A stretch of 15,804 bases of DNA. It comes from Nostoc punctiforme NIES-2108 (GTDB lineage Bacteria; Cyanobacteriota; Cyanobacteriia; Cyanobacteriales; Nostocaceae). Shown in pieces: positions 302 through 14,628 of this stretch (its first letter is position 1; each line of letters opens with the position of its first letter). A program made the position numbers and the translations under genes. The notes under the pieces are model-generated. The model was not told the DNA's origin. It did not search any database and saw only the letters and a list, made by a program, of their open reading frames with translations. The stretch is taken from the NCBI GenBank assembly GCA_003326195.1, contig LXQE01000136.1:308087-323890 (forward strand), in the 5' to 3' direction.

Positions 302-1591
302 ATGTCTCTAGCCTCCTTCCTAGCGCGTCGCTCGTTCCACTATGGCTGGATCGTAGCTGGTTTAACATTCCTAGCCTTGCTGGTGGCAGCCGGAATCCGC
401 TCTGCTCCTGGAGTTTTTATAGTGCCTCTCGAACAAGAGTTTGGCTGGAGTAGAGCAACTATATCTTTGGCAATCTCCATTAACTTAGTACTCTACGGAC
501 TAATTGGCCCTTTTGCTGCCACAGTTATGGAGCGCATCGGCATTCGTCGGATGATGGTATTCTCACTTGCCATCATTGCGCTGGGTGTCGGTTTAACCAC
601 TTTAATGTCAGCTTCCTGGCAACTAGTCTTGCTGTGGGGTGTAGTTGTCGGTTCTGGTAGCGGAGTTATTGCCCTAGTTTTAGGTGCTATTGTTGTCAAT
701 CGCTGGTTTTTGGAAAAGCGGGGTCTAGTTCTGGGCATCTTAACCGCCAGTACAGCCACGGGACAACTAGTGTTTCTGCCGATACTAGCCTCAATGGCCG
801 ATCGCTTTGGGTGGCGAACTGCGGCTCTGGCTCTGACTGGTGCAGCACTTCTAATTATTCCAGCGATCGCAGCCTTTATGCGCGATCGTCCGGCAGATGT
901 CGGTTTGCGAGCCTTTGGCGACAACAGCGAAACTGTGGAAGTGTTGCAGCCCAAAGTCAATTCCATCGCTTCTACTCTTAACGCCCTCTGGCTAGGAATG
1001 CATAATCGAGACTTCTGGCTATTATTTGGTAGCTTTTTTATCTGTGGCGCAAGCACAAACGGGTTAATTGGAACTCATCTAATTCCTGCTTGTATTGACC
1101 ACGGTATTCCTGAAGTCAAGGCTGCTGGGCTTTTGGCAATCATGGGACTATTCGATTTTTTTGGTACTACTATGTCCGGTTGGCTATCTGACCGTTGGAA
1201 CAATCGCTACTTATTGTGCTGGTACTACGGATTGCGGGGTTTATCTTTGATTTTCTTGCCCTTCAGTTTTAACTTTTCCTTCTACGGACTTTCCATTTTC
1301 GCCGTCTTCTATGGACTTGATTGGATTGCTACCGTACCACCGACAGTCCGTCTTGTTGCCAACATCTTCGGTAAAGAAAATGTCGGCGTGATGTTCGGTT
1401 GGATTGTCGCAGGACACCAGCTTGGTGCAGCCACAGCAGCATTCGGAGCCGGAGTGTTGAGAACTTGGACGGGTAGTTATTTACAAGCATTTATTTTATC
1501 AGGCGTTCTCTGTCTGATTGCCGCAGTTTGTGTATTGCAAATTGGTCAAACTCCCACTAAGAGTAATTATTTTGTAGAGAAGAATTTGTAG
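302..1591 (+). CDS. MFS (major facilitator superfamily) transporter, 429 aa
   Basis: Full-length ORF that is hydrophobic throughout, with about 12 predicted TM segments in a 6+6 layout split by a central loop (RDRPADVGLRAFGDNSETVEV). It has an MFS-like loop motif (ERIGIRRMM) after TM2. The N-terminus resembles the OFA/YbfB-like subfamily. Confidence 0.85.
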   Translation: MSLASFLARRSFHYGWIVAGLTFLALLVAAGIRSAPGVFIVPLEQEFGWSRATISLAISINLVLYGLIGPFAATVMERIGIRRMMVFSLAIIALGVGLTTLMSASWQLVLLWGVVVGSGSGVIALVLGAIVVNRWFLEKRGLVLGILTASTATGQLVFLPILASMADRFGWRTAALALTGAALLIIPAIAAFMRDRPADVGLRAFGDNSETVEVLQPKVNSIASTLNALWLGMHNRDFWLLFGSFFICGASTNGLIGTHLIPACIDHGIPEVKAAGLLAIMGLFDFFGTTMSGWLSDRWNNRYLLCWYYGLRGLSLIFLPFSFNFSFYGLSIFAVFYGLDWIATVPPTVRLVANIFGKENVGVMFGWIVAGHQLGAATAAFGAGVLRTWTGSYLQAFILSGVLCLIAAVCVLQIGQTPTKSNYFVEKNL

Positions 1592-1735
1592 AGTGTGCGT
1601 AAGTCCTAATAACTTGCTTGTTAAGCTTATCCGTGGTTTGATATAGTACGGCATCTACATTAACTTATCGTAGTTTATTGACGACTCAATTACCTGAATT
1701 AACTTGTCAGCCACGAAATAAATATAAAACTTTCC

Positions 1736-2623
1736 ATGCCTATCCAAACTATTGGTATTTTAAGTCCGGGTGATATGGGACAAGCGATCGCAGCTGTTCT
1801 CAATCAACATGGATTGAAAACTATTGCCGCCCTAGACGATCGCAGCGAACGAACTCGGCAATTAGCAGCCGCAGCCAACATCCAAGATGTGGGTTCCCTC
1901 ACACAATTGGTAATTGAATCTGATGTGGTGCTGTCAGTTCTAGTCCCCGCAGCGGCTACCCAAGCAGCGAAGCAAGTAGCTGAGGCAATTGGTAATGTGG
2001 GTAAATCCATTATCTACGTTGACTGTAATGCGATCGCACCCCAAAAAGTTATAAATATCGGCCAACTCATTGAATCAGTTGGGGGAACATTCGTGGATGC
2101 ATCAATTATTGGTCCACCACCACGAGTTCCCAATCGCACCCGCATTTACACTTCAGGAAAACAAGCAAATCAACTCCTACAACTGCGAGATTATGGCTTG
2201 GATGTGCGGGTAATTGGTGATGAAATTGGTCAGGCTTCCGGGTTGAAAATGTCTTACGCAGCTCTAACAAAAGGGCTTACAGCAATCGGCACAGAATTAC
2301 TAATTGCAGCCCATCGTTTAGGTTTGGACAAAGAATTATGGGATGAAGTATCTAGTAGTCAACAAGAACTTGCTAGCATTTTAACGCGTTCCATTCCAGC
2401 GATGACACCGAAAGCCCATCGTTGGGTAGGAGAAATGGAAGAGATTGCAGAAACCTTTAAAGAGTTGGGTCTAACTGAGAGCATTTTTGAAGGAGCAGCA
2501 GACGTTTACCGTTTGGTGAAAGACACCTCCTTAGGTAAAGAAACACCAGAAGAGTCTAATCGCGATCGCCCCTTGGATGAAATCATTACAATCCTCTCCA
2601 ATGAAGCAATTTCCGACACCTAA
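1736..2623 (+). CDS. NAD(P)-dependent oxidoreductase, 6-phosphogluconate-dehydrogenase-like N-domain plus DUF1932-like C-domain, 295 aa
   Basis: N-terminal Rossmann dinucleotide motif IGILSPGDMGQAIA. The helical C-terminal half (KMSYAALTKGLTAIGTELLIAA) is typical of the 6PGDH_NADP-binding/DUF1932 family. Confidence 0.7.
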   Translation: MPIQTIGILSPGDMGQAIAAVLNQHGLKTIAALDDRSERTRQLAAAANIQDVGSLTQLVIESDVVLSVLVPAAATQAAKQVAEAIGNVGKSIIYVDCNAIAPQKVINIGQLIESVGGTFVDASIIGPPPRVPNRTRIYTSGKQANQLLQLRDYGLDVRVIGDEIGQASGLKMSYAALTKGLTAIGTELLIAAHRLGLDKELWDEVSSSQQELASILTRSIPAMTPKAHRWVGEMEEIAETFKELGLTESIFEGAADVYRLVKDTSLGKETPEESNRDRPLDEIITILSNEAISDT

Positions 2624-2664
2624 TCTTGAGTATTTTTTATAGATGGGGTAAAAAGCGAGAATCT

Positions 2665-3339
2665 ATGACTCAAGAGCAATGGACTGCGGTCGATCGTTAC
2701 TTTACCGATCTGCTAGTGCCGCCAGACCCCGCACTAGATAGAGCGCTACAGACTAGCGCCACCGCCGGACTGCCGCCGCACAATGTTTCGCCGAACCAGG
2801 GCAAGCTGCTGCTGCTGTTGGCGCAAATCCAAAGAGCGCGAAGCATCCTGGAAATTGGCACACTGGGCGGCTACAGTACAATCTGGCTAGCGCGGGCGTT
2901 ACCCAGCGATGGCCGTCTAATCACGCTGGAGGCAAACCCAAAGCACGCCGAAATTGCTCGTACCAATATCGCCCACGCTGGTCTGTCCGATATTGTTGAC
3001 CTCCGCCTGGGAAAGGCGCTCTCTACGCTGCCACAGATTGCCGCCGAAGGTCACGGCCCATTTGACTTAATCTTCATCGACGCAGACAAGCCAAGCAATC
3101 CCGAATACTTCGCGTGGGCGCTCAAACTTTCCCGTCGCGGCAGCCTGATTATCGCTGATAATGTTGTGCGTAACGGAGCGGTGATTGATGCCAATAGCAA
3201 CGATCCTAGCGTCCATGGGGTGCGTCGCTTCAACGAATTGCTTGCTTCTGAGCCGCGTGTCAGTGCTACGGCAATCCAGACTGTGGGTAGCAAAGGATAC
3301 GACGGCTTTGCGATCGCGATCGTCACCGCCGACGAATAA
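2665..3339 (+). CDS. Class I SAM-dependent O-methyltransferase (Methyltransf_3 / caffeoyl-CoA OMT-like), about 224 aa
   Basis: SAM motif I ILEIGTLGGYSTIWLA, the acidic post-I motif (LITLEANP) and motif FDLIFIDADK. The track ORF begins at TTG 2626, but ATG 2665 (MTQEQWTAVDRYF) is the more likely start. The gene is markedly more GC-rich than its neighbours. Confidence 0.85.
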   Translation: MTQEQWTAVDRYFTDLLVPPDPALDRALQTSATAGLPPHNVSPNQGKLLLLLAQIQRARSILEIGTLGGYSTIWLARALPSDGRLITLEANPKHAEIARTNIAHAGLSDIVDLRLGKALSTLPQIAAEGHGPFDLIFIDADKPSNPEYFAWALKLSRRGSLIIADNVVRNGAVIDANSNDPSVHGVRRFNELLASEPRVSATAIQTVGSKGYDGFAIAIVTADE

Positions 3340-3432
3340 TCTGAAGATGAGATGAGAGCCTCACTGTTCACTGTTGTGTCAGCTTCCCGCAGAGTACAGA
3401 AGTTCAGTAGCTCAAAATCATCGGGGTCGAAT

Positions 3433-3460
3433 CCCCCCTGCCCCTCTGCCCCTCTGCCCC
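3433..3460. repeat. C-rich octamer/heptamer tract (CCCCTCTG-type) immediately after the histidine-kinase stop codon
   Basis: The tract reads cccccctgcccctctgcccctctgccccc. On the kinase (minus) strand it is a G-run array directly 3' of the TAG, followed by the small hairpin GGGGATTCGACCCC (3423-3436) and a U-rich stretch. Confidence 0.8.
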
Positions 3461-6127
3461 CTAAATAGCTTTCATTGGCAGACTGACAACGAATGTCGCC
3501 CCCTGTCCAATTCCTGGACTTTCGGCCGAGACTGTGCCACCGTGTAATTCTACCAAGTGGCGGACGATCGCTAACCCTAATCCTAATCCTCCATGCGATC
3601 GCGTGCTGGAACTGTCAGCTTGACGAAAACGTTCAAATACATGGGGTAGAAATTCCGCAGCAATTCCTGCTCCCGTATCACTCACCCGAATTTGCACGCA
3701 AGATTCAATGCACTCTAATTGCACATCAACTCTGCCGCCCTTGGGTGTAAACTTGACAGCATTGGAGAGCAAATTCCACACAACCTGTTGCAAACGGTTG
3801 GCATCGCCCACAACTACTTCTACCTTTGGGTCGAATCTACACTTAATACTAATCTCTTTAGCCTGGGCTGCTGGGTACACAGTATCGATTGCCGCTTCTA
3901 CAAGTGGTACAATTTCTACCCGATCCGTACTTAAATGAAGTGTGCCTCTAATAATGCGTGATACATCGAGAACATCTTCAATTAGTTGTGTCAGGGATCT
4001 AGTATTACGTTCAATTGTCTCTAGTGCGCGGCCAGTAGTAGCTTGATCGAATTTGCGCGTTCTAAGTAGCTGTGTCCAGCCTAGTATAGCGTTGAGCGGT
4101 GTACGGAGTTCGTGAGAGAGTGTGGCGAGAAACTCATCCTTCATCCGGTTTGCAGTTTCGGCATCGGCGCGTGCTGCTTGTTCGCGTTTAAGCAGTTCTT
4201 CGCGTTCTTGCTCTGCTTGCTTGCGATCGCTAATATCAATCATGAATCCATGCAGTAGCTGTGGCCCATTTTCATCCCGCACTACATTCACAATGTCATA
4301 CAGCCAGACTACTCTGCCATCAGCAGCCAACATTCTGTATTCAAATTCATAATTATTTAGTGATAGAGAAGATTCTTGGCAATACTGAATAGCCCACTTC
4401 CGATCTTCTGGATGCATATTTTTTGCCCAGAAATTATCGGTGTACCAGTCTGACAATGGATAGCCTAGAATCTCAACAGTTTGTGGCCCTACATAAGTAA
4501 AATTCCCAGTAGTGGCATTTACCTCCCAAGGAATCACACGGACTTTTTCCGTGAGTGTCTTTAAACGTTTCTCGCTTTGTTTGAGAGCTGCTTCTGCTAA
4601 CTTATGAAGTGTAATATCTGTGATTAGGGCAACAAATCCTGCAACTTTTCCCTGGTGACTGAACTGGGGAACGTAAGTAATATTTAGGTAATGGTTTGTG
4701 CCATCTTTATCGGGTACTTGGGTTTCGTAAGTTACTTTTTCTCCTGAAAGTACCGCTTCTATATAAGGAAGAATTGACTGATAAACAGATTCTCCGACAA
4801 TTTCTCTAATGTGTTTACCATAAATTTCGGAAGTAGGAAGCCCAAACCAGTCTTCATATTCTTTATTATTAAAGCGATAACGCTGCTGACTATCAACATA
4901 AGAAATCTTGGCGGGCACAGCATTGGTAATTAGACGCAGTTCATCTTCTCGTTGACGGAGTGCTGCTTCTGCTTGCTTGTGTTCTGTGATGTCGCGTTGA
5001 GTTCCCCACGCTCTAACTAAAAGCCCATTTTCGACAATTCCCACCAGATTATTCAAAAAATATTTGGAATTACCTTGCTTATCTATTTCATGGGACTCGG
5101 CATCTATTAGTCGGTAGTTAGAACGTATAAAGTTACGCAGGTATGCAATATTATGTGGATCGGAGGCAACAAGAAAGTCTCCTAATCTGACACCGATAAT
5201 TTCTTCGGCACGAGAACAGCCATACATCTGTGCCATAACATTGTTGCATTCTGCCAGGTAAACATATTGGTAAAAATGTTGAATTTGTTCATCTTCTGGA
5301 CAATCTGCTGAAATTGGTACTTCCAGTTCGATGCACCAAATACCTTCTGAACTCTGCTCTAAAAAAGTGCGGTAGCGTTCTTCGCTTTTGGCAAGGGCGA
5401 GTTCTACTTGTTTGCGTTTGCTTAAATCAATCACAAAAGAAATAATATCATTTTGGTTATTTTCTAACAAAGCAGAACCTAACAGGATGGGAACGCGACT
5501 ACCATCTTTGCGGATGTATTCGTTCTCAAAAGACTGACACACGCCTTTAGTTGTGAGTTCTGCAATCGCACTGTTGTTAGTTTCAATATATTCTGGTGGG
5601 ATCATCTCGTGCCATCTGACTCGCCCTGCTAGCAAATCCTCCTGCGAATAATCTACCATTCTTAAAAAAGCATCATTAGCCTCTGCGATTGCCCCGTCCA
5701 TTTTGGCTACAATTACCCCAATAATGTTGGACTCTACCAACCTTCTAAATTTTGTCTCGCTCAACTGTAGTTTCTGCAAACTCATTTGAAGATGTTGTTT
5801 GGCAGCGCGTAATTCTAAGTTCAGCAAGTTAATAATTGTTGTCACCAGCACAAACAAGCCTAAGCGCAGTATATTGTCTAGACTGGCAACCAAGAGCGAA
5901 AACACTGGTTCTAAGAAAAAGTAGCTGACGGCTAAAGTAGACAAAGCAGTAGCCAATAACCCTGCTTCCATACCGCCATACCAGGCACTAACCGCCACGG
6001 CAGCAAAAAACAGCAAAAAAATACTTGGTTTCAGTAGTGGCTGTAGCAATAGTGTTAATAGCAATACGCTACCAACACCCAATAATGCCACAGCATAAGG
6101 TGCTAGAAGGGAACGTGTTCCTCTCAA
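3461..6127 (-). CDS. Sensor histidine kinase: N-terminal DUF4118-like membrane domain, about 4 PAS domains, HisKA, HATPase_c; 888 aa; no receiver domain
   Basis: The N-terminus has 3-4 TM helices (LLAPYAVALLGVGSVLLLTLLL...WYGGMEAGLLATALSTL). Repeated PAS-like blocks are each preceded by coiled-coil linkers ending in ITE(H/L)K / DIS(D/K)RK. The H-box FLATLSHELRTPLNAILGW has its His codon at 4112-4114. N/G boxes are NLLSNAVKFTP, DTGAGI and GGLGLGLAIV. A TTG start at 6125-6127 has AAGGAG about 10 nt upstream. Confidence 0.9.
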   Translation of the reverse strand: MRGTRSLLAPYAVALLGVGSVLLLTLLLQPLLKPSIFLLFFAAVAVSAWYGGMEAGLLATALSTLAVSYFFLEPVFSLLVASLDNILRLGLFVLVTTIINLLNLELRAAKQHLQMSLQKLQLSETKFRRLVESNIIGVIVAKMDGAIAEANDAFLRMVDYSQEDLLAGRVRWHEMIPPEYIETNNSAIAELTTKGVCQSFENEYIRKDGSRVPILLGSALLENNQNDIISFVIDLSKRKQVELALAKSEERYRTFLEQSSEGIWCIELEVPISADCPEDEQIQHFYQYVYLAECNNVMAQMYGCSRAEEIIGVRLGDFLVASDPHNIAYLRNFIRSNYRLIDAESHEIDKQGNSKYFLNNLVGIVENGLLVRAWGTQRDITEHKQAEAALRQREDELRLITNAVPAKISYVDSQQRYRFNNKEYEDWFGLPTSEIYGKHIREIVGESVYQSILPYIEAVLSGEKVTYETQVPDKDGTNHYLNITYVPQFSHQGKVAGFVALITDITLHKLAEAALKQSEKRLKTLTEKVRVIPWEVNATTGNFTYVGPQTVEILGYPLSDWYTDNFWAKNMHPEDRKWAIQYCQESSLSLNNYEFEYRMLAADGRVVWLYDIVNVVRDENGPQLLHGFMIDISDRKQAEQEREELLKREQAARADAETANRMKDEFLATLSHELRTPLNAILGWTQLLRTRKFDQATTGRALETIERNTRSLTQLIEDVLDVSRIIRGTLHLSTDRVEIVPLVEAAIDTVYPAAQAKEISIKCRFDPKVEVVVGDANRLQQVVWNLLSNAVKFTPKGGRVDVQLECIESCVQIRVSDTGAGIAAEFLPHVFERFRQADSSSTRSHGGLGLGLAIVRHLVELHGGTVSAESPGIGQGATFVVSLPMKAI

Positions 6128-6187
6128 TGTGGCTTCTCCTTTTATGCAGCTAGCTAAAGGATTATTCCCAAAATTAGCCAGAAAATG

Positions 6188-6272
6188 TGAAGCGTTAGCG
6201 AGTCTTCTCCCAAGGGAGACGCCAAGGGCGTTAGCGAGTCATCGAGCGTCACAGCCCGTCGTAGCAATCGCT
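6188..6272. repeat. Dispersed short-repeat element (GCGTTAGCGAGTC direct repeat at 6192-6204 and 6228-6240; AGCCCGTCGTAGC tail)
   Basis: Direct reading. Related sequence blocks recur at 14706-14793 and 15151-15188. It accounts for the spurious ORF 6129..6341. Confidence 0.7.
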
Positions 6273-6854
6273 CAACACTTAATTATGCATCGGAAAAATA
6301 CATATCCAAGAAGTTACTTGCTGCTAATCTATCTAAAGTAGTAAATCTTAGATTTAAAAAAGTTCAAGAATCTGATAATTATCGCTCTAATTATATATGT
6401 TTTATTTTTGAGTCTCTATCAAACAGTAGAGATTTATTAAGACGAATTCAGAACTCAGTAGTCGGATTATGCAAGTCCAAAAAAAATATAATCCTTGATA
6501 GGAGTTTTGCATAAGCCCCAACAAATAAGAGTAAATAATTCTACTACAATCAAAATTTTGAATGCGTATATTCTTATCTTCTAGATGTGAATTTACCCAA
6601 AGAAAAAAAGCAATTAAAGTTAAGCCAGCTATTAATATAATCTACACCTGCAATTGCAACCGTTTCAGCAAAAAGCTCTGTCGCTATTCTTTGTAGGATT
6701 CGGACAGGTTATTGTTGGTTTGCCGATGGGACATTCAGTGACTAATGAGCGCATCTAATTGGGTTTTGTCGGAATTAGTTTGATGAATCATGCACTTTTT
6801 GCGTTATTAGTAATCAATAGACTAGGGAATGGGGCATGGCGAATGGAAAAATTA

Positions 6855-6909
6855 CCAATGCCCAATGCCCAATGCCCAATGCCCAATGCCCAATGCCCAA
6901 TGCCCAATA
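6855..6909. repeat. Heptamer tandem repeat (CCCAATG) x about 7.7, STRR-like, ending 3 nt before the helicase ATG
   Basis: Units sit at 6861, 6868, 6875, 6882, 6889 and 6896, with a partial unit at 6855 and a degenerate unit at 6903-6909. A partially complementary GGGGCATGGCGAATGG lies just upstream (6829-6846). Confidence 0.95.
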
Positions 6910-6912
6910 CTC

Positions 6913-8517
6913 ATGGCTCGTACCCCTACATTAAATTTTGATCGTGGCACATTAATTTTGCATCCACCACCACGCGGCAAAGGTTGGATGGATTATGCTA
7001 CGTGGGATGATAGAGTTGAAAAATTCCGCATTCCAGCAATTAGATATCGATCGCTAGTGGAAGCACTACAAGCGGAAGATGTGAATTTTATCGATGAGGC
7101 CAAGCAATTTTATCCTGTAGATTTGGTTCCCACTCTGGAAATGGAACCCTATCCCCACCAAACTGAGGCGTTAGCGGCTTGGAAACTGGCGGGTAGACAA
7201 GGAGTCGTTGTGCTTCCCACGGCGGCGGGAAAGACTTATTTAGCGCAAATGGCAATGCAATCAACGCCACGCACGACGCTGATTGTAGTCCCAACTTTGG
7301 ATTTAATGCATCAATGGTATGCACATTTAGTAGCGGCTTTCCCCGATGCGGAAGTGGGATTGCTGGGAGGTGGTTCGCGGGATAGAACGGCAATTTTAGT
7401 TGCAACTTATGATAGTGCGGCAATTCACGCCGAAACGTTGGGAAATCAATATGCGTTGATTGTTTTTGATGAATGTCATCATTTACCCACAGATTTTAAT
7501 CGGGTAATTGCCGAATATGCGATCGCACCTTATCGCCTGGGACTCTCCGCGACACCGGAAAGGACTGATGGTAAACACGCTGATTTAAATATCCTCATTG
7601 GTCAAGAAGTATATCGCAAACGCGCCGAGGATTTGGCGGGGAAGGCGTTAGCAGAGCATGAAATTGTCCAAATTAAGGTAAAGTTATCGCAACTTGAACG
7701 GGAAAGATACAACCAATTAATTCAAACTCGCAATGACTTTTTGAAACAATCGAAAATTTCTTTGGGGAGTTTGCAAGGTTGGCAAATGTTCGTGCAAATG
7801 AGTGCTAGATCGCAATCTGGACGTAGGGCTATGTTAGCGCATCGAGAAGCGAAAGATATCGCTTTGGGTACTGATGGAAAGTTGCGAATTTTGATTGATT
7901 TATTGGCAGAACATTATCCGGCGAGAATTTTGATTTTTACTGCTGATAATACAACGGTTTATCGCATTTCTCAAGAGTTGCTAATTCCGGCAATTACTCA
8001 TCAAACTCCTGTGAAAGAACGGCATGAGATATTAACAAAGTTTCGAGAGGGTAAATATAATACTTTGGTTGCTTCTCATGTGTTGAATGAAGGGGTTGAT
8101 GTGCCGGCGGCAACTGTTGCAATTATTTTATCGGGGACGGGTTCGGCTAGGGAGTATACTCAGCGCTTGGGGAGGATTTTACGGAAGGGGAATATTGAGA
8201 ATAAGCAGGCGATTTTATATGAGGTGGTGGCGGAGGATACGAGTGAGGAGGGGACTTCGGCTAGGCGGAGAGGGGAGAGGAAAGACGAACCGCCAAGACG
8301 CGGAGGACGCAGAGAGGAAGAGGAGAGGAAAGGGAAGTTACAGGTTGTGTATGGGAGTGGGAAGGAAAGGAGTTTGAAGGCGGCGGAACAGTTAGAAATT
8401 AATTATTCAACCGGAAGTCCAAAATCTAAAATCCAAAATTCAGCAGATGTTACCGACAGACTTACTGATGCATCGCCAAAACGGGGAGGAGATTATTCCG
8501 AAGAGACTGAAGATTGA
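6913..8517 (+). CDS. SF2 helicase of the XPB/Rad25 (Ssl2)-like DNA repair helicase family, about 534 aa, with a low-complexity Arg/Glu/Gly-rich C-terminal tail
   Basis: Q/Ia region YPHQTEALAAW, Walker A LPTAAGKT (7216-7236), motif II DECHH (7468-7482), motif III LSATPER, motif VI QRLGRILR. The N-terminal ~70 aa (LNFDRGTLILHPPP...WDDRVEKFRIP) resemble the XPB damage-recognition-like domain. The start is placed at ATG 6913 rather than the track's 6829, which reads through the heptamer repeat. Confidence 0.85.
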   Translation: MARTPTLNFDRGTLILHPPPRGKGWMDYATWDDRVEKFRIPAIRYRSLVEALQAEDVNFIDEAKQFYPVDLVPTLEMEPYPHQTEALAAWKLAGRQGVVVLPTAAGKTYLAQMAMQSTPRTTLIVVPTLDLMHQWYAHLVAAFPDAEVGLLGGGSRDRTAILVATYDSAAIHAETLGNQYALIVFDECHHLPTDFNRVIAEYAIAPYRLGLSATPERTDGKHADLNILIGQEVYRKRAEDLAGKALAEHEIVQIKVKLSQLERERYNQLIQTRNDFLKQSKISLGSLQGWQMFVQMSARSQSGRRAMLAHREAKDIALGTDGKLRILIDLLAEHYPARILIFTADNTTVYRISQELLIPAITHQTPVKERHEILTKFREGKYNTLVASHVLNEGVDVPAATVAIILSGTGSAREYTQRLGRILRKGNIENKQAILYEVVAEDTSEEGTSARRRGERKDEPPRRGGRREEEERKGKLQVVYGSGKERSLKAAEQLEINYSTGSPKSKIQNSADVTDRLTDASPKRGGDYSEETED

Positions 8518-9661
8518 TCAAAAAACTTCGGAATTGGCGATTGAGTTAATTAATTATTTTCAATCAGCAGTGGGGAAGACTCAAGGTGTGCTTGAGCGAC
8601 AACTGACTGATTTTGAAGGAGATTCTACAGATTATAGGGTGAAGCGGGGATTAGCTTATATTCTCAAAAGCAGTTTTTGCACTTTTGAGGTGGTTAGTCC
8701 TTTGGAACCACAGATGTTAAGAGAACGGGTATTTTCTCTGGCTGCAAAGTCTGTTTCTAGTCGAGAATCTACACAAGTTAGTCTGGGTAAAATTGCTGAT
8801 GAATTAACTCAAGAACTTGAGCGAGAAGTTTTATTAGAACAGGTTCGGAATGGATTATACGCTGATTTATCTGAAAATAAGATTTTGACTGTTTTTGATG
8901 CACCAACAGCGCCAGATTTATTAAATCGATATAACTTATCTCAGGTACAGGGTGTGTTTTATAAGGCCAGTCAACTGGTGTTAAATGCTCATCGGAATGT
9001 TCCGGGAGAATATAAGCTGTTATTTCGCTATTTAAAGTTGTTTCAATTGATGGCTTATATTGAAGGTGATGCTGACCACGGGTTTACAATTACCATTGAT
9101 GGGCCGACGAGTTTGTTTAATCCTAGTACACGATATGGGTTAGCGATCGCTAAACTTATTCCGGCTTTACTTCACGTTACTAAATGGAGTCTTTCGTCGA
9201 TTCTCCAAACCCGTGATGCTTATACAAATACTTGGAAAACTGGACGTTTTACTCTCAATTCTGAATGTGGTTTGGTATCCCATTATCCACCAGGAAAGCC
9301 CTACGATAGTATGTTAGAAGCATCCTTTGCAGATAAATGGGATGCGTTGAAAAGTGGTTGGGCATTAGAGCGAGAAGTTGATTTGATCCCAATCCCTGGT
9401 AGTGTGATGATTCCTGATTTTCGCTTAGTTCATGCTGATGGACGCACCTTTTTATTAGAAATTGTTGGTTATTGGCGACCAGAATATTTACAAAAGAAGT
9501 TTTCTCAGGTGCGACGGGCTGGACGTGATGACTTAATTTTGGCAATTTCCGAGCGACTTAATTTAGAAAAGGCGGGAGTAAAATTAAATGATGTCCCCGC
9601 TAGAATTGTTTGGTTTAAAGATAAGTTATTGCCGAAAGCTGTGTTAGCTGTAATGGATTGA
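8447..9661 (+). CDS. DUF790 family protein (Bax1-like, XPB-associated endonuclease), 404 aa
   Basis: The N-terminus MLPTDLLMHRQNGEEIIPKRL matches my recollection of the DUF790 N-terminus. The C-terminal nuclease-like core is IPDFRLVH...LLEIVGYWRPEYL. It lies immediately downstream of an XPB-like helicase and overlaps it by 71 nt, the arrangement known for archaeal XPB-Bax1. Confidence 0.7.
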   Translation: MLPTDLLMHRQNGEEIIPKRLKIDQKTSELAIELINYFQSAVGKTQGVLERQLTDFEGDSTDYRVKRGLAYILKSSFCTFEVVSPLEPQMLRERVFSLAAKSVSSRESTQVSLGKIADELTQELEREVLLEQVRNGLYADLSENKILTVFDAPTAPDLLNRYNLSQVQGVFYKASQLVLNAHRNVPGEYKLLFRYLKLFQLMAYIEGDADHGFTITIDGPTSLFNPSTRYGLAIAKLIPALLHVTKWSLSSILQTRDAYTNTWKTGRFTLNSECGLVSHYPPGKPYDSMLEASFADKWDALKSGWALEREVDLIPIPGSVMIPDFRLVHADGRTFLLEIVGYWRPEYLQKKFSQVRRAGRDDLILAISERLNLEKAGVKLNDVPARIVWFKDKLLPKAVLAVMD

Positions 9662-9676
9662 TTAAGGATAAATGAG

Positions 9677-9919
9677 ATGAAAAGTATAGAAACAATTGCC
9701 ACAGTTACAAAAGATGGTAAGATTATAGCGCAATTACCACTCGATATTCCAGAGGGTGAGCATCAGGTGGTAATAGTAATTGATGAAAAGCCTTTGACTG
9801 AGAAGGCAGAGAAGAAAGAAAAGCGTCCTCCTCTAAACTTTCCTGTGCATAATTATGGCCCTTGGCCTGAAAACCTTTCTTTAAGACGTGACGATATGTA
9901 TGGTGATTGGGGGCGATAA
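9677..9919 (+). CDS. Type II antitoxin (VapB-like, cyanobacterial small antitoxin family), 80 aa
   Basis: Small ORF 15 nt after the DUF790 stop. Its N-terminal beta-rich segment (ATVTKDGKIIAQLPLDIPEGEHQVVIVID) and C-terminal LSLRRDDMYGD motif are typical of antitoxins preceding PIN toxins in cyanobacteria. It overlaps the PIN gene. Confidence 0.65.
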   Translation: MKSIETIATVTKDGKIIAQLPLDIPEGEHQVVIVIDEKPLTEKAEKKEKRPPLNFPVHNYGPWPENLSLRRDDMYGDWGR

Positions 9920-10352
9920 TCCTGTTTTTCTGGACACAAATATCTTGGTGTACGCTAGTCAGATTCAGTCTCCATTTCACCAAGCTGCTATGGAGGCAAT
10001 CCAAGGTTTTTATGATGCGGGGATTGAATTGTGGATTAGCCGACAAATATTGCGGGAATATTTGGCTACCCTTACCCGTCCGCAACAGTTTGTTAACCCA
10101 CTACCCATTGCAATAGTAATTCAGGATCTCCGCTATTTTTATAACCGCTTTTGGGTGGCTGAAGATAGTTCTCAAGTTACAGAAAGATTACTGACGCTTA
10201 TGGAGGAAATTCCTAGCGGTGGTAAGCAAGTTCATGATGCAAATATCGTCGCTACAATGCTAATTTATGGTATTCCTCAATTACTCACTCACAACATAGG
10301 CGATTTTGCAAGATTTTCTCGGTTAATTACTGTCTTGCCATTACAAGGTTAA
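9900..10352 (+). CDS. vapC: PIN-domain ribonuclease toxin (VapC family), about 150 aa
   Basis: PIN acidic signature FLDTNILVYA (Asp), ILREY (Glu), VHDANIVA (Asp) and THNIGDF. ATG 9900 overlaps the antitoxin stop by 20 nt; the track's GTG 9888 is an alternative start. Confidence 0.85.
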   Translation: MVIGGDNPVFLDTNILVYASQIQSPFHQAAMEAIQGFYDAGIELWISRQILREYLATLTRPQQFVNPLPIAIVIQDLRYFYNRFWVAEDSSQVTERLLTLMEEIPSGGKQVHDANIVATMLIYGIPQLLTHNIGDFARFSRLITVLPLQG

Positions 10353-10375
10353 CGCCGTGTGCGACTTTATCTCAA

Positions 10376-10463
10376 ACCTAACCCCCAACCCCTTCCCTAC
10401 TAGCGTTGGGGAGCAAGAATCAAAGCCTCTCGACCTTTCGGGGAGAGGAATGGAAGCGGGGTT
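10376..10463. repeat. MITE-like palindromic dispersed repeat between convergent genes (AACCTAACCCCCAACCCCTTCCC ... GGAATGGAAGCGGGGTT, internal hairpin CCTCTC/GAGAGG); possible bidirectional terminator
   Basis: The terminal segments are imperfect inverted complements. An internal stem sits at 10426-10431 / 10443-10448. This sequence type is common in Nostocales intergenic DNA. Confidence 0.55.
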
Positions 10464-10493
10464 CCAATTTCGGTAATTGTACAATTCCACTGA

Positions 10494-11183
10494 TTAACCC
10501 CAAACGCTTCTGCGTTCCCGATATTCAGCGACTCTTTTTTCCCACTGCTCCCAGTAATCTTTAATGACTGCTGATTCAAACCAAAATACCTCTGCTGGCA
10601 TTTCTGGAATCGCTACTACCAACAGAGCGTACTTTAGCTGAATGCCATAATCTTGATAATATTCGTTAGCTGCTCCTATATACGCCGTAAGTTGCAGTGG
10701 ATGTTCATATAAATGCTCAATTGAACCTTTGGGTTTGTCTGCTGTTTTCCACTCGCAAATACAGGGAATACCTTGATAGCTGGCAATACAATCAACTTTG
10801 CCAGAATAACCCAAATCATGATGAAAAACTGAGCCTTCTACAAGTCTAACTGTGTCAATTTGTTCTAAAACTGGCTTGATACTCTCCCAATAAGGGCGAC
10901 TTGCTTCGGGACAAACAGGGTTTTGACCAAGGAGGTAGTGCTCAATTTGTTTGTGTGTTTGGGTTCCCCGACGACTAGCGCTTGTAGTAATGCGGGTAGC
11001 TTCTTCTGTACCAACACGCGTTTTCCAGTTTAATAATCTGTCTCGGTCTGCTTGTGATTTGGTGGCATTAAGTATTGTAGTAACGCTGGGAAAACGATTT
11101 CCCTTGGCATCTACATAATATTGTTTACCATTTTCTCTTTTGGCTGTGGCATTAATGCGTGGTAGCAGTTGGGTATCATGCAT
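10494..11183 (-). CDS. PD-(D/E)XK superfamily nuclease (phage-type / RecB-like exonuclease family), 229 aa
   Basis: The N-terminal block FPSVTTILNATK...LLNWK...GTQTHKQIEHYL is followed by the catalytic-type GKVDCIA...ICEWKTA (D...ExK). Clean ATG start at 11181-11183. Confidence 0.65.
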   Translation of the reverse strand: MHDTQLLPRINATAKRENGKQYYVDAKGNRFPSVTTILNATKSQADRDRLLNWKTRVGTEEATRITTSASRRGTQTHKQIEHYLLGQNPVCPEASRPYWESIKPVLEQIDTVRLVEGSVFHHDLGYSGKVDCIASYQGIPCICEWKTADKPKGSIEHLYEHPLQLTAYIGAANEYYQDYGIQLKYALLVVAIPEMPAEVFWFESAVIKDYWEQWEKRVAEYRERRSVWG

Positions 11184-11372: not shown

Positions 11373-11792
11373 ATGGAACCTGTAACATTAACAGCAGTTG
11401 CAACTGCGATCGCTACTATAGTTTTAACTAAAGCTCTAGAAAAAACTGGCGAAAAGCTTGGGGAAGCTGCATTAGACAAAAGTCGTGAGTTAATCGAACA
11501 GCTACATAATAAAAATAAGTTACCTTGGCTAGCGGCTGCAACACAGCAGCCGTTAGATTATGGCAAAGCAGTGCTGGAGTTAAAAGCAGCAGCAGATGCA
11601 GATAGTGAAATTGCTCAATCTGTGCGAGAAATGGAAGCAGCCGCAAATGCTGATCCCCAAGCGCCGAAAGTCCAGGCGTTAGCAAATGACCTAAACTCGC
11701 AACCAGCAGGTATTATTAATTCTACAAAGTTAGCTGACTCTATTAAAAACGTCTTTCAGGGAAATACTTTCACTGGTACTAATAACTTCTGA
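11373..11792 (+). CDS. Small alpha-helical protein, 139 aa: hydrophobic N-terminal helix plus N/Q/G/T-rich tail; in frame with the downstream NB-ARC gene (probable detached N-terminal effector/adaptor module)
   Basis: The sequence starts MEPVTLTAVATAIATIVLTKALEKTGEKLGE, continues with Ala/Glu-rich helices and ends VFQGNTFTGTNNF. Its stop, TGA 11790-11792, is in the same frame as ORF 11868..13838. Confidence 0.6.
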   Translation: MEPVTLTAVATAIATIVLTKALEKTGEKLGEAALDKSRELIEQLHNKNKLPWLAAATQQPLDYGKAVLELKAAADADSEIAQSVREMEAAANADPQAPKVQALANDLNSQPAGIINSTKLADSIKNVFQGNTFTGTNNF

Positions 11793-11867
11793 CTGTACCC
11801 GCCTGTTGGGGAACAGGTAAAGTTAAATCCTTCTACTGAAACACCGCAAAATTTACCCCTGAGTGGA

Positions 11868-13838
11868 GTGGTGAAGTTTGTCGGGCGTGAAACTGAATTG
11901 CAAAACCTGCATGAGATGTTGCAGGAAAATAATCAGGTGGTAATTGCCGCGATCGCTGGCATGGGTGGACTGGGTAAAACAGAACTGGCCTTACAATATG
12001 CAATGGCTCACCGTGAAACTTACAAGGGTGGAATTTGCTGGTTGTTGCCAAAGGCTGGAGATGTGGGTATTCAAATTGTGCAGTTTGCTAGAACTCACCT
12101 TGACTTAAACTCACCACAATATCTGGATGGAGACTTACCCAGTCAAGTGAAATACTGCTGGCAGCACTGGCGTGAAGGTGATGTACTGGTAGTACTGGAT
12201 GATCTCAATGATTACTCCAAAGTTGAGACATATTTACTACCGCAACTACCCCGTTTTAAAGTGCTGATTACGACGCGATTACAGTTAGACCTTCCCCAGT
12301 CTTTTACTCTAAATGTTTTGGGTGAATCCTCATCTGTGGAACTTTTACAAGCTTGGGTGGGAGAAAAAGTAACACAGGAATCAGCAGCAGCAAAAAAACT
12401 CTGTGAATGTTTAGGTTATTTACCTTTGGCTCTGAACTTGGTAGGAAGGTATATTAAAAAGCGGAGAATCTCTCTGACGGAAATGGTGCAACGGTTGGAC
12501 GCAAAAGGGAAAGCGTTAAATCATCAGGCTTTGACGCTGGATGAAAAAGACCGCACTTGTACGCTAAATGTTAAGCGGGGTGTGATTGCAGCTTTTGAGT
12601 TAAGTTGGGAAAAATTAAGTAATGATGCCAAAGAGTTAGGTGTTTTACTGAGTTTATTTGCTTTAGCTCCTATTCCCTGGACATTAGTAGAAAGTGTAGA
12701 AACGGGGAAAGATGCTGAACAGTTGGAAGATAGTAGAGTTGAGTTAGAGAGTTTACATCTGCTTCAAGGTGAGGACAACTACCACCTACATCAACTCATT
12801 CGGGAATTTTTTCAACTTAAGCAAGCTGAGTTCAATCAAGTGGAGGAATTAAAGCGATCGCTTTGTCGGGTAATGGTAGGGATCGCAAAGTCAATTTCTC
12901 ATCCCCAGTCAATTACCCATAATACGATTACAGCAGTTAATCCTGCACTACAACATTTGGAAGAAGCTGCTAAAGCTCTAAAAGACTTAAGTAACGATGA
13001 CGATTTAATTTGGCTATTCACTGGTTTAGGCAGATTTTATGAAGGTCAGGGTTTTTATGAACAAGCAGAGACTTGGTATAAACTGTGCATAGAGGTTGCC
13101 GACAGACCTTCTAGCTTTGCTGCTTTATATAAGGCCTCTAGCCGCAACAATCTAGCATCACTCTACACATTTCAAGGATATTATTCACAAGCAGAAGAGC
13201 AATACAAAGAAGCTTTAGAAATAAACAGGCATCTGCTAGGCGAGGAACATCCTGATACAATTACCACTTTGAGCAATTTGGCATATCTTTACAAAGCTCA
13301 GAAGTTTTACGAAAAGGCAAAACCTATCTACAAAAGAGCTTTAGAATTAAGGATCTGCTTATTGGGAGAGACTCATATTGATGTAGCAACAAGCCTTAAT
13401 AATCTGGCAGCTTTATACTCTGAAGAGGGCAACTATTGGGATGCAGAACTGCTGTGTACAAGATCCATAGAAATCTGCCAGATAAATATAAAAATCTGCC
13501 AGATAAATGAAAATTTTCTAAAACTCACTTTTAGCTTAAATACTCTAGCAAATATTTATTGTGGGCAGCATCGCTACAGTGAAGCTGAACAAAAATATCA
13601 ACAAGTCGTGGCATGGCGAAAAACCTTATTAGGAGAAGACCATCATCAAGTGGCAATCAGCTTAGATCAACTGGCATATCTTTACCGTATCCAATACCGC
13701 TATAAGGAGGCAGAAATATTATGTGTAAAAGCTTTAGAAATTTTTGAACAACGGCTGGGTGTCAATAATCCTGATACGGTTATGTGCCGTGAAAATTTAG
13801 CATATCTTCGCGATCGCCTCCCCCCAAATCCAGAATAA
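11868..13838 (+). CDS. STAND NTPase, NB-ARC domain plus C-terminal TPR array (NLR-like), 656 aa as drawn
   Basis: FVGRETEL pre-P-loop helix, Walker A GMGGLGKT (11958-11981), Walker B VLVVLDDL (12183-12206), LPLAL motif (GYLPLALNLVG). At least 6 kinesin-light-chain-type TPRs follow (LNNLAALY, LSNLAYLY, LDQLAYLY, ...LGE(E/D)HP). Only a GTG start is available and the upstream sequence is open in frame back to TGA 11790. Confidence 0.85.
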   Translation: MVKFVGRETELQNLHEMLQENNQVVIAAIAGMGGLGKTELALQYAMAHRETYKGGICWLLPKAGDVGIQIVQFARTHLDLNSPQYLDGDLPSQVKYCWQHWREGDVLVVLDDLNDYSKVETYLLPQLPRFKVLITTRLQLDLPQSFTLNVLGESSSVELLQAWVGEKVTQESAAAKKLCECLGYLPLALNLVGRYIKKRRISLTEMVQRLDAKGKALNHQALTLDEKDRTCTLNVKRGVIAAFELSWEKLSNDAKELGVLLSLFALAPIPWTLVESVETGKDAEQLEDSRVELESLHLLQGEDNYHLHQLIREFFQLKQAEFNQVEELKRSLCRVMVGIAKSISHPQSITHNTITAVNPALQHLEEAAKALKDLSNDDDLIWLFTGLGRFYEGQGFYEQAETWYKLCIEVADRPSSFAALYKASSRNNLASLYTFQGYYSQAEEQYKEALEINRHLLGEEHPDTITTLSNLAYLYKAQKFYEKAKPIYKRALELRICLLGETHIDVATSLNNLAALYSEEGNYWDAELLCTRSIEICQINIKICQINENFLKLTFSLNTLANIYCGQHRYSEAEQKYQQVVAWRKTLLGEDHHQVAISLDQLAYLYRIQYRYKEAEILCVKALEIFEQRLGVNNPDTVMCRENLAYLRDRLPPNPE

Positions 13839-13983: not shown

Positions 13984-14346
13984 TTATATAGGCAATCGCC
14001 TCACTCGGAAAGTTTCATTACTTACAGAAATAATTGCCCCTAACTCTAAATCTTCCTGGCATTCACTCAAAACTTGAGTCAACCGTTCATTAATTGCATC
14101 ATAATTTTCGTTCCCCAACCTAAACAAAATCACACTAGGTAAACTATCCCCACTCACGGCTAAAAGTTGGGCAAAATCTAAATCTATAGTTAATAAAATT
14201 CTTCCTTCTGCACGGGCTTTAATTAAAATCTCATTATCTGGTAGTCTTTGCAAACCTTCATCGCGCAAATGCACTACATCATAATCAGCACCACGCAACC
14301 AAGTTACAGTGCGTAGTGAAATTCCCATATCTGCCAAAAACTTCAT
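13984..14346 (-). CDS. DUF5615 family PIN-like / Mut7-C-like putative toxin, 120 aa
   Basis: MKFLADMGIS...VVHLRDEGLQRLPDNEIL..A..EGRILLTIDLDF is the characteristic DUF5615 pattern. It lies 9 nt downstream of a DUF433 gene. Confidence 0.7.
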   Translation of the reverse strand: MKFLADMGISLRTVTWLRGADYDVVHLRDEGLQRLPDNEILIKARAEGRILLTIDLDFAQLLAVSGDSLPSVILFRLGNENYDAINERLTQVLSECQEDLELGAIISVSNETFRVRRLPI

Positions 14347-14355
14347 TATTACTTG

Positions 14356-14628
14356 TTAAGCACTTTTGAAGGTATAAACCCGTTCTTGAGTCAACCACGC
14401 TGCATAAAGAAGAGATTGACGAATATCTTCTGCTTCTAAATCAGGATATTCTTCTAAAATTTCTTCTATAGACTTTCCATGAGCTACCAAATTTACCACT
14501 AAAGAAACCGGAATCCGCATCCCGCGAATGCAAGCTTGTCCAGCCATAATGCTAGGGTCAAATGTAATTCTCTCCAGACCTAACATAAACGATCGCTCCA
14601 AAATCTTTTTCATCGCTCTGAGGTGCAA
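14356..14628 (-). CDS. DUF433 domain protein (putative antitoxin / HTH partner of DUF5615), 75-90 aa depending on start
   Basis: ITFDPSIMAGQACIRGMRIPVSLVVNLVAHGKSIEEILEEYPDLEAEDIRQSLLYAAW matches the DUF433 consensus (DP.i..G.p.I.GtRi.v..i......G.s.eeIl..yP.l...di..al.Ya). Alternative ATG starts lie at 14613 and 14586. Confidence 0.75.
   Translation of the reverse strand: MHLRAMKKILERSFMLGLERITFDPSIMAGQACIRGMRIPVSLVVNLVAHGKSIEEILEEYPDLEAEDIRQSLLYAAWLTQERVYTFKSA

Follow-up and report, generated by a model that had tools for sequence, protein, structure and literature searches.

An archaeal-type XPB-Bax1 gene pair in Nostoc and the accessory toxin-antitoxin cassette that follows it

This study deals with a block of four tightly packed genes on the + strand, located at positions 6913-10352 of a 15,804-nt stretch of DNA from Nostoc punctiforme NIES-2108 (contig LXQE01000136.1, positions 308,087 to 323,890), which is referred to as "the window" in its full length. 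The genes encode, in this order, a helicase, a DUF790 nuclease, a small putative antitoxin and a PIN-domain protein, and an original prediction had regarded them as a single unit with a possible function in anti-phage defence. From the analyses presented here we conclude, with a probability of about 0.72, that the block consists of two things, namely a conserved XPB-Bax1 gene pair and a toxin-antitoxin cassette, which is dispensable and accessory.

Results

Layout of the four-gene block

All four open reading frames (ORFs) were found on the + strand where the original prediction had placed them, i.e. the helicase, DUF790, an ORF of 80 amino acids (aa) and the PIN ORF ending at 10352, and they are packed as tightly as it had claimed. 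The features of the block are listed below.

6855..6908, no strand assigned: perfect CCAATGC heptamer array of 7.7 copies (Tandem Repeats Finder), a Nostoc-type short tandem repeat in the 5' leader, separated from the XPB start codon by 4 nt
6913..8517, + strand: archaeal-type XPB superfamily 2 (SF2) helicase, 534 aa (Pfam and PDB matches)
8278..8517, + strand: Nostoc-specific C-terminal tail of XPB, about 80 aa (residues ~456-534; alignments with homologues end at residue ~449-456)
8447..8517, + strand: out-of-frame overlap of 71 nt between the 3' end of XPB and the 5' end of Bax1 (ORF coordinates)
8447..9661, + strand: Bax1-family (DUF790) PD-(D/E)XK-type endonuclease, 404 aa (Pfam, PDB and motif residues)
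9677..9919, + strand: putative antitoxin, 80 aa, named by position only, beginning 15 nt past the Bax1 stop
9888..10352, + strand: VapC-like PIN-domain toxin, starting at GTG 9888 or ATG 9900 (Pfam PIN)

The predicted overlap of 71 nt between the helicase and DUF790 genes corresponds to 8447-8517, and the predicted gap of 15 nt between the DUF790 stop and the next ATG to 9662-9676. The overlap of 20 nt between the PIN and antitoxin genes holds if the PIN gene starts at ATG 9900 and becomes 32 nt with GTG 9888, either start being possible. The longest helicase ORF starts at 6829, but the extension reads through the CCAATGC heptamer array, and 6913 is a sensible start since XPB_DRD, the first domain of the protein, begins at residue 7 counted from the ATG at this position. 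Likewise, the DUF790 start at 8447 is supported because the Pfam DUF790 profile aligns from residue 1. Profile searches confirmed the predicted families of the XPB helicase, DUF790 and PIN proteins, whereas the label "VapB-like" for the 80-aa ORF turned out to be derived from position alone.

Conservation of the gene pair and turnover of the cassette among Nostoc loci

For the comparison among relatives we used 80 loci, each from the genome record of a different species (with three exceptions, the records bore the label Nostoc or Desmonostoc), in which the homologues of every window gene were located; 77 of them were testable for XPB adjacency, i.e. contained enough upstream sequence, and for the state of the cassette. 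XPB is located directly upstream of DUF790 in all 77 testable loci. Their overlap measures 71 nt in 73 of the 80 loci, 98 nt in four and 74 nt in one, and its conservation suggests translational coupling. The XPB/DUF790 junction in other lineages ranges from a gap of 5-6 nt to an overlap of 35 nt. DUF790 shows the highest median identity of the window genes (98.1%, minimum 97.3%), a figure that is inflated by the choice of the 80 loci as best DUF790 matches, followed by the major facilitator superfamily (MFS) transporter (97.3%), XPB (95.2%) and a PD-(D/E)XK nuclease gene (95.1%); the median is 91.2% for the antitoxin, 70.7% for PIN (range 40-93%) and 52.3% for an NB-ARC/TPR protein. The pair is core-like in Nostoc, and XPB-Bax1 is under strong constraint throughout the turnover of the cassette.

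The cassette presents itself in several states. Both the antitoxin and the PIN ORF are intact in about 36 of the 77 loci, 7 have the antitoxin ORF only, about 10 harbor a 5' remnant or pseudogene of the antitoxin, and 24 are devoid of any trace (the states of L028 and L038 were re-assigned from nucleotide matches). ORFs homologous to the antitoxin occur in 41 Nostoc loci, and the PIN ORF comes next in most of them. The remnants (L003, L021, L040, L041, L045, L056, L076, L079) comprise the first 20-170 nt of the antitoxin gene, carry stops or truncations and retain the 15-nt junction. In L008, L009, L016, L028 and L067, precisely this junction after DUF790 is interrupted by heptamer repeats, and in several loci the cassette is displaced by 100-350 nt, either by heptamer repeats or by a second antitoxin copy. 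The PIN identities cluster mostly around 60-75% or 85-93%, and a tandem of two antitoxins followed by a divergent PIN gene is found in 14 loci, which suggests that cassettes have been replaced. An unrelated two-gene pair occupies the slot that separates DUF790 from the convergent PD-(D/E)XK gene in 9 loci; the slot is almost empty in L040 and L045, and about 25 Nostoc loci have a wholly different downstream context (infC, a DEAD-box helicase gene, a TetR regulator gene).

The idea of a four-gene unit is not supported by this comparison: XPB and DUF790 are adjacent in 77 of 77 loci and the cassette is intact in about 36 of 77, i.e. its adjacency is not conserved, and in the sampled Deinococcus, Latescibacteria and non-Nostocaceae cyanobacteria no such cassette is located directly downstream of the pair. 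This toxin-antitoxin family is associated with XPB-DUF790 in yet another arrangement in L104, where homologues of the antitoxin (63% identity) and of PIN (68%) are encoded just upstream of XPB, about 2.3 kb upstream of DUF790.

The helicase and the DUF790 protein are homologous to the archaeal XPB-Bax1 complex

The helicase matches the Pfam families XPB_DRD (4.5e-26, residues 7-63), ResIII, Helicase_C and ERCC3_RAD25_C, and a damage-recognition domain, helicase domain 1 with a RED-type motif, a presumed thumb region and helicase domain 2 can be distinguished. Among PDB entries, it aligns with XPBII of Sulfurisphaera tokodaii (6p4f_A, 3.7e-99) and XPB of Archaeoglobus fulgidus (2fwr_A, 7.2e-99; 6p66_A, about 7e-99), the A. 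fulgidus chains (2fwr, 6p66_A) covering residues 7-456, whereas eukaryotic XPBs match much less well (about 1e-23 to 1e-25). The RED motif reads PERTDGKH in the window protein compared with FEREDGRH in A. fulgidus XPB (AfXPB) and PERDDGKH in S. tokodaii XPB (StXPB), i.e. the outer residues R and D are conserved with T between them. The alignment with the archaeal XPBs is gapless through the stretch after the RED motif, where we presume the thumb (ThM) to be located. The NCBIfam XPB equivalog model gives the helicase 188 bits versus a cutoff of 610 bits. Judged by its sequence, the helicase is an archaeal-type XPB and not of the actinobacterial type of Mycobacterium tuberculosis.

The C-terminal tail of about 80 aa is not found in archaeal, Deinococcus or other bacterial XPBs, as far as the alignments with PDB and plasmid homologues are concerned. 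It contains a conserved LQVVYGSGKERSLKAAEQLEINYS block between two hypervariable inserts of low complexity, which follow RRRGER and EINYS, respectively, and the 80 Nostoc loci fall into 30 classes of tail length and overlap, all of which are in frame. In the window, a TCCAAAA repeat of 3.1 copies is located at 8418-8439 within the region coding for the tail. Some of the inserts resemble expanded short repeats, such as TCCAAAA x3 (8418-8439) and runs of LVLSEVEV and AGGAGEAGG. At the other end of the gene, heptamer arrays lie at most 120 nt upstream of XPB in roughly half of the 80 Nostoc loci and consist of 3-11 copies of CCAAT[G/C/T]C-type and other units; shifts in copy number could alter the XPB leader or add N-terminal extensions. 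Every CCAATGC unit contains an ATG.

The DUF790 protein matches the Pfam DUF790 profile over practically its entire length (8.4e-155; residues 1-402, profile positions 1-386 of 387) and aligns over residues 1-369 or more with the Bax1 chains 6p66_B (1.4e-30), 6p4f_B (2.4e-23) and 6p4o_B. It also matches the NCBIfam model for endonuclease Bax1 (1.8e-47); the Bax1 equivalog models assign it 162 and 135 bits, which is under their cutoffs of 500 bits because these models are narrow, species-level ones. The nuclease site of A. fulgidus Bax1 (AfBax1) is formed by E275, D305 and E318 (PMC7293015). The acidic residues of the motifs LE, IPDF (D324) and LEIVG are kept in the window protein and align to the E274/275, D305 and E318 region of AfBax1. 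Together with the aspartate of a YAD motif in the N-terminal site they are invariant in 21 mostly bacterial homologues, an alignment (A3) that was used in place of a set of 47 sequences (A2), which was too diverse for the scan patterns. E135 of the N-terminal site of AfBax1 aligns to a serine.

An identical DUF790 protein is encoded on a contig of a Nostoc metagenome-assembled genome. Among 1.84 billion representatives, the family accounts for 2,418 clusters (50% identity, E up to 1e-3), and relatives at 30-35% identity include Bax1 proteins of Nitrososphaerota; a homologue search seeded with a relative of 518 aa, which was aimed at Actinobacteria, reached Nitrososphaerota archaea instead.

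The Pfam and PDB homologies of both proteins bear out the pairing of an XPB-type helicase with a Bax1-like nuclease that the original prediction had put forward. On the basis of these homologies, the window pair is a genuine archaeal-type XPB-Bax1 pair, and its proteins qualify as clear orthologues of the structurally solved machine. The additional statement that the role of the bacterial pair is not established is correct insofar as the bacterial pair lacks experimental study, but the cyanobacterial association of DUF790 with an SF2 helicase had been published, together with a predicted role in repair or recombination, in 2005 and again in 2012 (PMC1189080, PMC3424549).

The toxin-antitoxin cassette

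The ORF of the putative antitoxin is preceded by AAGGA 8 nt upstream of its ATG. It yielded no Pfam match even at E values up to 10, noise aside, and belongs to no recognized VapB-type family (AbrB, RHH, Phd/YefM, MerR); its only match was the NCBIfam model for the RelN antitoxin, which is sub-threshold (E 7e-4, 20 bits versus a cutoff of 70) and located at the N-terminus. The single-sequence AlphaFold model of the protein was unusable (pLDDT 61, pTM 0.22). The PIN ORF scores above the gathering cutoff of Pfam PIN (2.1e-7, 32 bits versus 23.6) and under the cutoff of the VapC family TIGR00028 (4.6e-13, 49.6 bits versus 73.6). In its translation, D16, E57, D117 and D139 (numbered from the GTG) are located at the positions expected for PIN catalytic residues and are putatively assigned as such. 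The region 9677-10352 is most likely an ordinary type II toxin-antitoxin cassette, composed of a predicted VapC-like PIN RNase and a small antitoxin.

A consensus scan revealed no promoter-like match upstream of the antitoxin within the 3' end of Bax1. On the + strand of positions 6100-10700, the only terminator-like matches were at 7214 and 8105/8107, all within the helicase ORF, and the only promoter-like matches at 8032, within the helicase ORF, and at 9696, within the antitoxin ORF. The totals of both kinds of matches equal the expectation from shuffled sequence, and the test is a crude consensus test; the scan is compatible with the predicted co-transcription of the four genes but proves nothing. 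Scans of the window for Rfam families and tRNAs gave no match, and the fold of the intergenic region 10345-10500 is unremarkable (z-score -0.63).

The pair beyond Nostoc

The wider set of loci consisted of 80 metagenome loci, which are mostly cyanobacterial and have 60-99% DUF790 identity, and of other sampled loci (L081-L091). XPB and DUF790 are adjacent in Deinococcus, Latescibacteria and other lineages, and their distribution among bacterial phyla is patchy. Both annotated Deinococcus neighbourhoods are metabolic, one of them with topA downstream, and neither contains a toxin-antitoxin pair. In three non-Nostocales cyanobacteria, DUF790 is located among housekeeping genes with no adjacent XPB. 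Homologues of the antitoxin follow DUF790 only in Nostocaceae-like loci of the metagenome set, and no toxin-antitoxin pair was found directly after DUF790 at any sampled locus outside Nostocaceae. The first and second downstream genes of 73 loci outside Nostoc proper, 141 genes in total, belong to 194 Pfam families, the commonest of which are Response_reg (5 proteins), DUF2786/DUF7168 (5), TPR families and Uma2 (3). PIN and toxin-antitoxin families do not figure among the 25 commonest, and no enrichment of toxin-antitoxin or restriction genes was seen among the 141 genes.

Homologues of XPB and of DUF790 were each detected in 42 of 72,556 plasmid records, and both show an identical breakdown by organism: 12 records are from Deinococcus and the rest are haloarchaeal secondary replicons, and 40 of the 42 are predicted to be non-mobilizable. 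The pair had no match in 50,697 phage genomes and was found at 1 locus in IMG/VR (2.9 million contigs).

Search for a link to defence systems

The suggestion of an anti-phage function received no positive support from PADLOC, from the distribution of the pair or from its neighbourhoods, and is considered unsupported. DUF790, PIN and the antitoxin match no model of PADLOC-DB v2. The helicase matches the models of PADLOC for PbeA (3e-52), type IV restriction and Dpd helicases, as well as dnd_restrict_1 of NCBIfam (6.5e-32); the best PbeA match spans only profile positions 247-635 of 672, which we read as the SF2 helicase core. A phosphorothioate-linked restriction system was considered and rejected: the helicase alone matches PbeA/Dnd, and the window is free of dnd, ssp or pbe partner genes.

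In a small sample of 10 annotated diverse loci, one adjoins McrBC and GmrSD, and PADLOC matches are few among the 141 downstream neighbours of the 73 loci, which is a small sample as well. The locus with these defence neighbours (L084, in a 6.4-Mb bacterial genome) encodes McrBC, a GmrSD-type type IV restriction gene and BrnT/BrnA just upstream of the pair (512-5451, - strand). The Latescibacteria locus L085 has the downstream backbone in common with L084 and lacks the restriction genes, and from this we conclude that McrBC, GmrSD and BrnTA at L084 are an insertion and not partners of the pair. In the literature searched, no paper ties XPB, Bax1 or DUF790 to phage defence.

Neighbouring genes in the window

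Downstream of the block, the window contains the following features.

10494-11183, - strand: PD-(D/E)XK nuclease gene with weak Cas4-like matches, convergent to the block, with 87-97% identity in 49 of 80 Nostoc loci
11373-13838, + strand: ORF of 139 aa without a family, then an NB-ARC/TPR protein (656 aa) with the NB-ARC domain at its very start
13984-14628, - strand: second toxin-antitoxin-like pair, composed of DUF433 (14356-14628) and PIN-like DUF5615 (13984-14346)

The PD-(D/E)XK gene is the stable right-hand border of the variable slot, and it has no link to XPB-Bax1 outside Nostocaceae. In other Nostoc loci, an ORF of the same 139-aa type precedes a protein of 1031 aa, the N-terminus of which (MKNSIFISYRVTD...) looks TIR-like by eye only. 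An N-terminal effector domain may be missing from the NB-ARC/TPR copy in the window, or its place may be taken by the 139-aa ORF. A few Nostoc loci contain the DUF433/DUF5615 pair, with 91-99% identity.

Discussion

Proposed function of the pair and its relation to the cassette

Our results divide the four genes into the XPB-Bax1 pair and the accessory cassette. Concerning the pair, a role in the processing of chromosomal DNA, such as its repair, is most likely. By analogy to the archaeal proteins, XPB would act as an ATP-driven 3'->5' translocase, which opens or extends a DNA bubble or fork; the N-terminal domain of Bax1 would dock on the thumb and helicase domain 2 of XPB, its Cas2-like domain would set Bax1 at the fork, and its C-terminal PD-(D/E)XK-type domain would cut one strand near the junction of single- and double-stranded DNA (PMC7293015, PMC7672443). 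The overlap of the two genes would probably result in translational coupling and thereby in a roughly 1:1 ratio of XPB and Bax1. Nostoc, as a bacterial host, is expected to have UvrABC. The pair, which was probably inherited vertically in Nostoc, may function alongside UvrABC in dealing with bulky or crosslink damage or with stalled intermediates.

Presumably, the cassette entered an ancestor of this Nostoc clade at a site 15 nt past the Bax1 stop, and in roughly half of the species it would since have been exchanged, reduced to an orphan, turned into a pseudogene or deleted. In the window it is possibly read through from the XPB-Bax1 transcript, and XPB-Bax1 would be independent of it. The PIN RNase toxin would be neutralised by the labile antitoxin in the standard type II mode.

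Several observations weigh against such a separation of pair and cassette, or against the function proposed for the pair. The antitoxin starts at the identical spacing of 15 nt in 33 Nostoc loci, and antitoxin homologues also follow DUF790 in the more distant Nostocaceae L105, L120 and L137 (85-88% DUF790 identity), from which it follows that the association is old and has been kept in many lineages, leaving room for a functional benefit. Regarding the pair itself, XPB is adjacent to DUF790 in only 36 of the 71 testable loci of the metagenome set and L081-L091. The loci without an adjacent XPB (L086-L089 and about half of L092-L171), many of which belong to non-Nostocales cyanobacteria, have 60-72% DUF790 identity and neighbours such as PmbA/TldD, response regulators and phosphoketolase, and the Bax1 nuclease may not always work with XPB. 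The high DUF790 identity in Nostoc has to be read with the selection of the loci in mind. Moreover, no LexA-box-like site is located upstream of XPB, which offers no link to the SOS response; the Anabaena-type LexA box (RGTACNNNDGTWCB, at most 1 mismatch) had two matches, neither of them near the operon, which is below the chance expectation. Finally, "repair" is itself deduced, because archaeal xpb mutants are barely sensitive: deletions of xpb in archaea cause only slight sensitivity to ultraviolet light (UV), mitomycin C (MMC) or methyl methanesulfonate (MMS) (PMC7690668, PMC7776575).

Alternative explanations

Could all four genes nevertheless form one anti-phage or genome-surveillance system, in which XPB-Bax1 senses or cuts foreign DNA and PIN serves as the abortive-infection arm? 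The tight packing on one strand with no convincing terminator between the genes, the fixed 15-nt spacing between Bax1 and the antitoxin in 33 Nostoc loci, the match of the helicase core to PbeA and Dnd-restriction helicase models, and the presence of the NB-ARC/TPR gene, the Cas4-like PD-(D/E)XK gene and the DUF433/DUF5615 pair in the same window would be in line with it. However, the cassette is intact in about 36 of 77 Nostoc species and a remnant or absent elsewhere with XPB-Bax1 intact at 97-100%, PIN alleles are swapped and in some cases arranged behind tandem antitoxins, no sampled non-Nostocaceae locus has a toxin-antitoxin pair after DUF790, and PADLOC recognizes none of DUF790, PIN and the antitoxin. 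Given the non-conserved adjacency, the four-gene reading is highly improbable and close to refuted. A function in defence or foreign-DNA surveillance, or a selfish nature, could also be restricted to XPB-Bax1, with the cassette as an unrelated neighbour. A helicase combined with a nuclease is a common architecture of defence systems, the evidence for a repair role in vivo is weak even in archaea (PMC7690668, PMC7776575), and a selfish character was explicitly left possible by Kinch et al. 2005 (PMC1189080); the patchy occurrence across bacterial phyla together with the archaeal-type sequence suggests horizontal transfer, the pair is located on secondary replicons in Deinococcus and haloarchaea, and it adjoins McrBC, GmrSD and BrnT/BrnA in L084. 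Yet the pair is core-like in Nostoc, where no presence/absence variation was seen in 77 of 77 loci, it is missing from the phage genomes and represented by a single IMG/VR locus, and its carrier plasmids are nearly all non-mobilizable; its sampled neighbourhoods are mostly metabolic or housekeeping with sparse PADLOC matches among the 141 neighbours, the restriction genes of L084 are an insertion beside the pair according to the comparison with L085, and the searched literature holds no phage-defence paper on XPB, Bax1 or DUF790. We regard this explanation as unlikely.

Quite unlikely, in our estimation, is also that the archaeal-type XPB-Bax1 of cyanobacteria, Deinococcus and other bacteria, instead of backing up nucleotide excision, is a chromosomal surveillance nuclease against foreign or aberrant DNA (plasmids, phages, R-loops or replication intermediates of mobile elements), to which the toxin is linked by read-through. 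If true, this would account for the near-absent repair phenotype of archaeal xpb and bax1 knockouts, and the cassette would be kept since read-through ties a growth-arrest toxin to the activation of the machine. A coupling of the cassette to XPB-Bax1 could also be of a non-defence kind, either as a damage-induced slowing of growth by the PIN RNase or as a regional addiction module. The 15-nt spacing is too short for an intergenic promoter and the 3' end of Bax1 lacks a promoter-like match, the cassette has persisted at one and the same junction across many Nostoc lineages and in some other Nostocaceae, and homologues of both of its genes are encoded just upstream of XPB in L104. Against this, the cassette is frequently lost, pseudogenised or replaced by other alleles without an effect on the conservation of XPB-Bax1, it is pushed 100-350 nt away in several loci by heptamer repeats or a second antitoxin, the slot before the PD-(D/E)XK gene behaves like a generic variable slot in hosting an unrelated pair in 9 loci, and the promoter scan is crude and at chance level, which makes such a coupling improbable as well. 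We therefore retain the separation into a conserved XPB-Bax1 pair and an accessory cassette.

Comparison with known systems

An association of DUF790 (COG3372) with an SF2 helicase (COG1061, SSL2-like) in Archaea and Cyanobacteria was reported by Kinch et al. 2005 (PMC1189080) and repeated by Steczkiewicz et al. 2012 (PMC3424549). According to these surveys, the DUF790 family is found in cyanobacteria, Deinococci and archaea and co-occurs with ResIII/helicase genes, and a function in repair or recombination was predicted (PMC1189080, PMC3424549); a clade of Cyanobacteria and Deinococci was noted in 2012 (PMC3424549). The window pair is exactly this gene pair, but the surveys did not name the helicase as an archaeal-type XPB, nor did they mention the Nostoc tail, the overlap or the toxin-antitoxin slot. 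The pair is thus already known from bioinformatics, and what is lineage-specific are the XPB tail, the heptamer arrays, the decay of the cassette at a fixed junction and the DUF790 loci of other cyanobacteria without an adjacent XPB.

The archaeal XPB-Bax1 of A. fulgidus and S. tokodaii (PDB 6p66, 6p4f, 6p4o, 6p4w) consists of the same families in the same gene order; the helicases resemble each other end-to-end (about 1e-99), and the acidic residues of the nuclease as well as the YAD aspartate are kept in Nostoc. Nostoc differs by its R-T-D motif, the serine at the position of AfBax1 E135, the XPB tail of about 80 aa and the gene overlap of 71 nt. A heterodimer and XPB-dependent cleavage of bubbles and forks were demonstrated for the archaeal proteins only (PMC7293015, PMC7672443), whereas the Nostoc pair is known from its genes. 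M. tuberculosis XPB (Rv0861c; PMC3353954) is likewise a bacterial XPB-family 3'->5' helicase with proposed roles in genome maintenance, but it has an actinobacterial N-terminal domain of 120-130 aa (PMC3353954), and the Nostoc helicase bears a far closer resemblance to the XPBs of archaea. According to Balasingham et al. 2012 (PMC3353954), an XPB-Bax1 complex had yet to be identified in bacteria, and cyanobacteria possess few XPBs or none; a search of the literature on Rv0862c yielded nothing relevant.

The cassette resembles type II VapBC modules in its small overlapping ORF before a PIN toxin, the four acidic residues, and its high turnover and allele swapping. Unlike these, its antitoxin falls into no usual VapB family, its PIN protein scores under the curated VapC cutoff, and the module starts 15 nt after a conserved gene without an obvious promoter region of its own. 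Hachiman HamAB, Gabija GajAB and the Dnd/Pbe helicases share with XPB-Bax1 the logic of an SF2 or SF1 helicase combined with a nuclease, and the PbeA and dnd_restrict_1 matches of the helicase are on the sub-family level. In contrast to these systems, the nuclease partner in Nostoc is without a match, and the pair shows no island enrichment in our sample and no mobility and is core-like.

Implications

We advise against retaining the four-gene "defence module" as a candidate system. The practical value of the present analysis is a corrected annotation, i.e. XPB and Bax1 in place of the generic RefSeq names "DEAD/DEAH box helicase family protein" and "DUF790 family protein". Nostoc punctiforme, which has a 98%-identical copy, is genetically tractable and tolerates UV and desiccation, would be a reasonable host in which to address the job of XPB-Bax1 in vivo.

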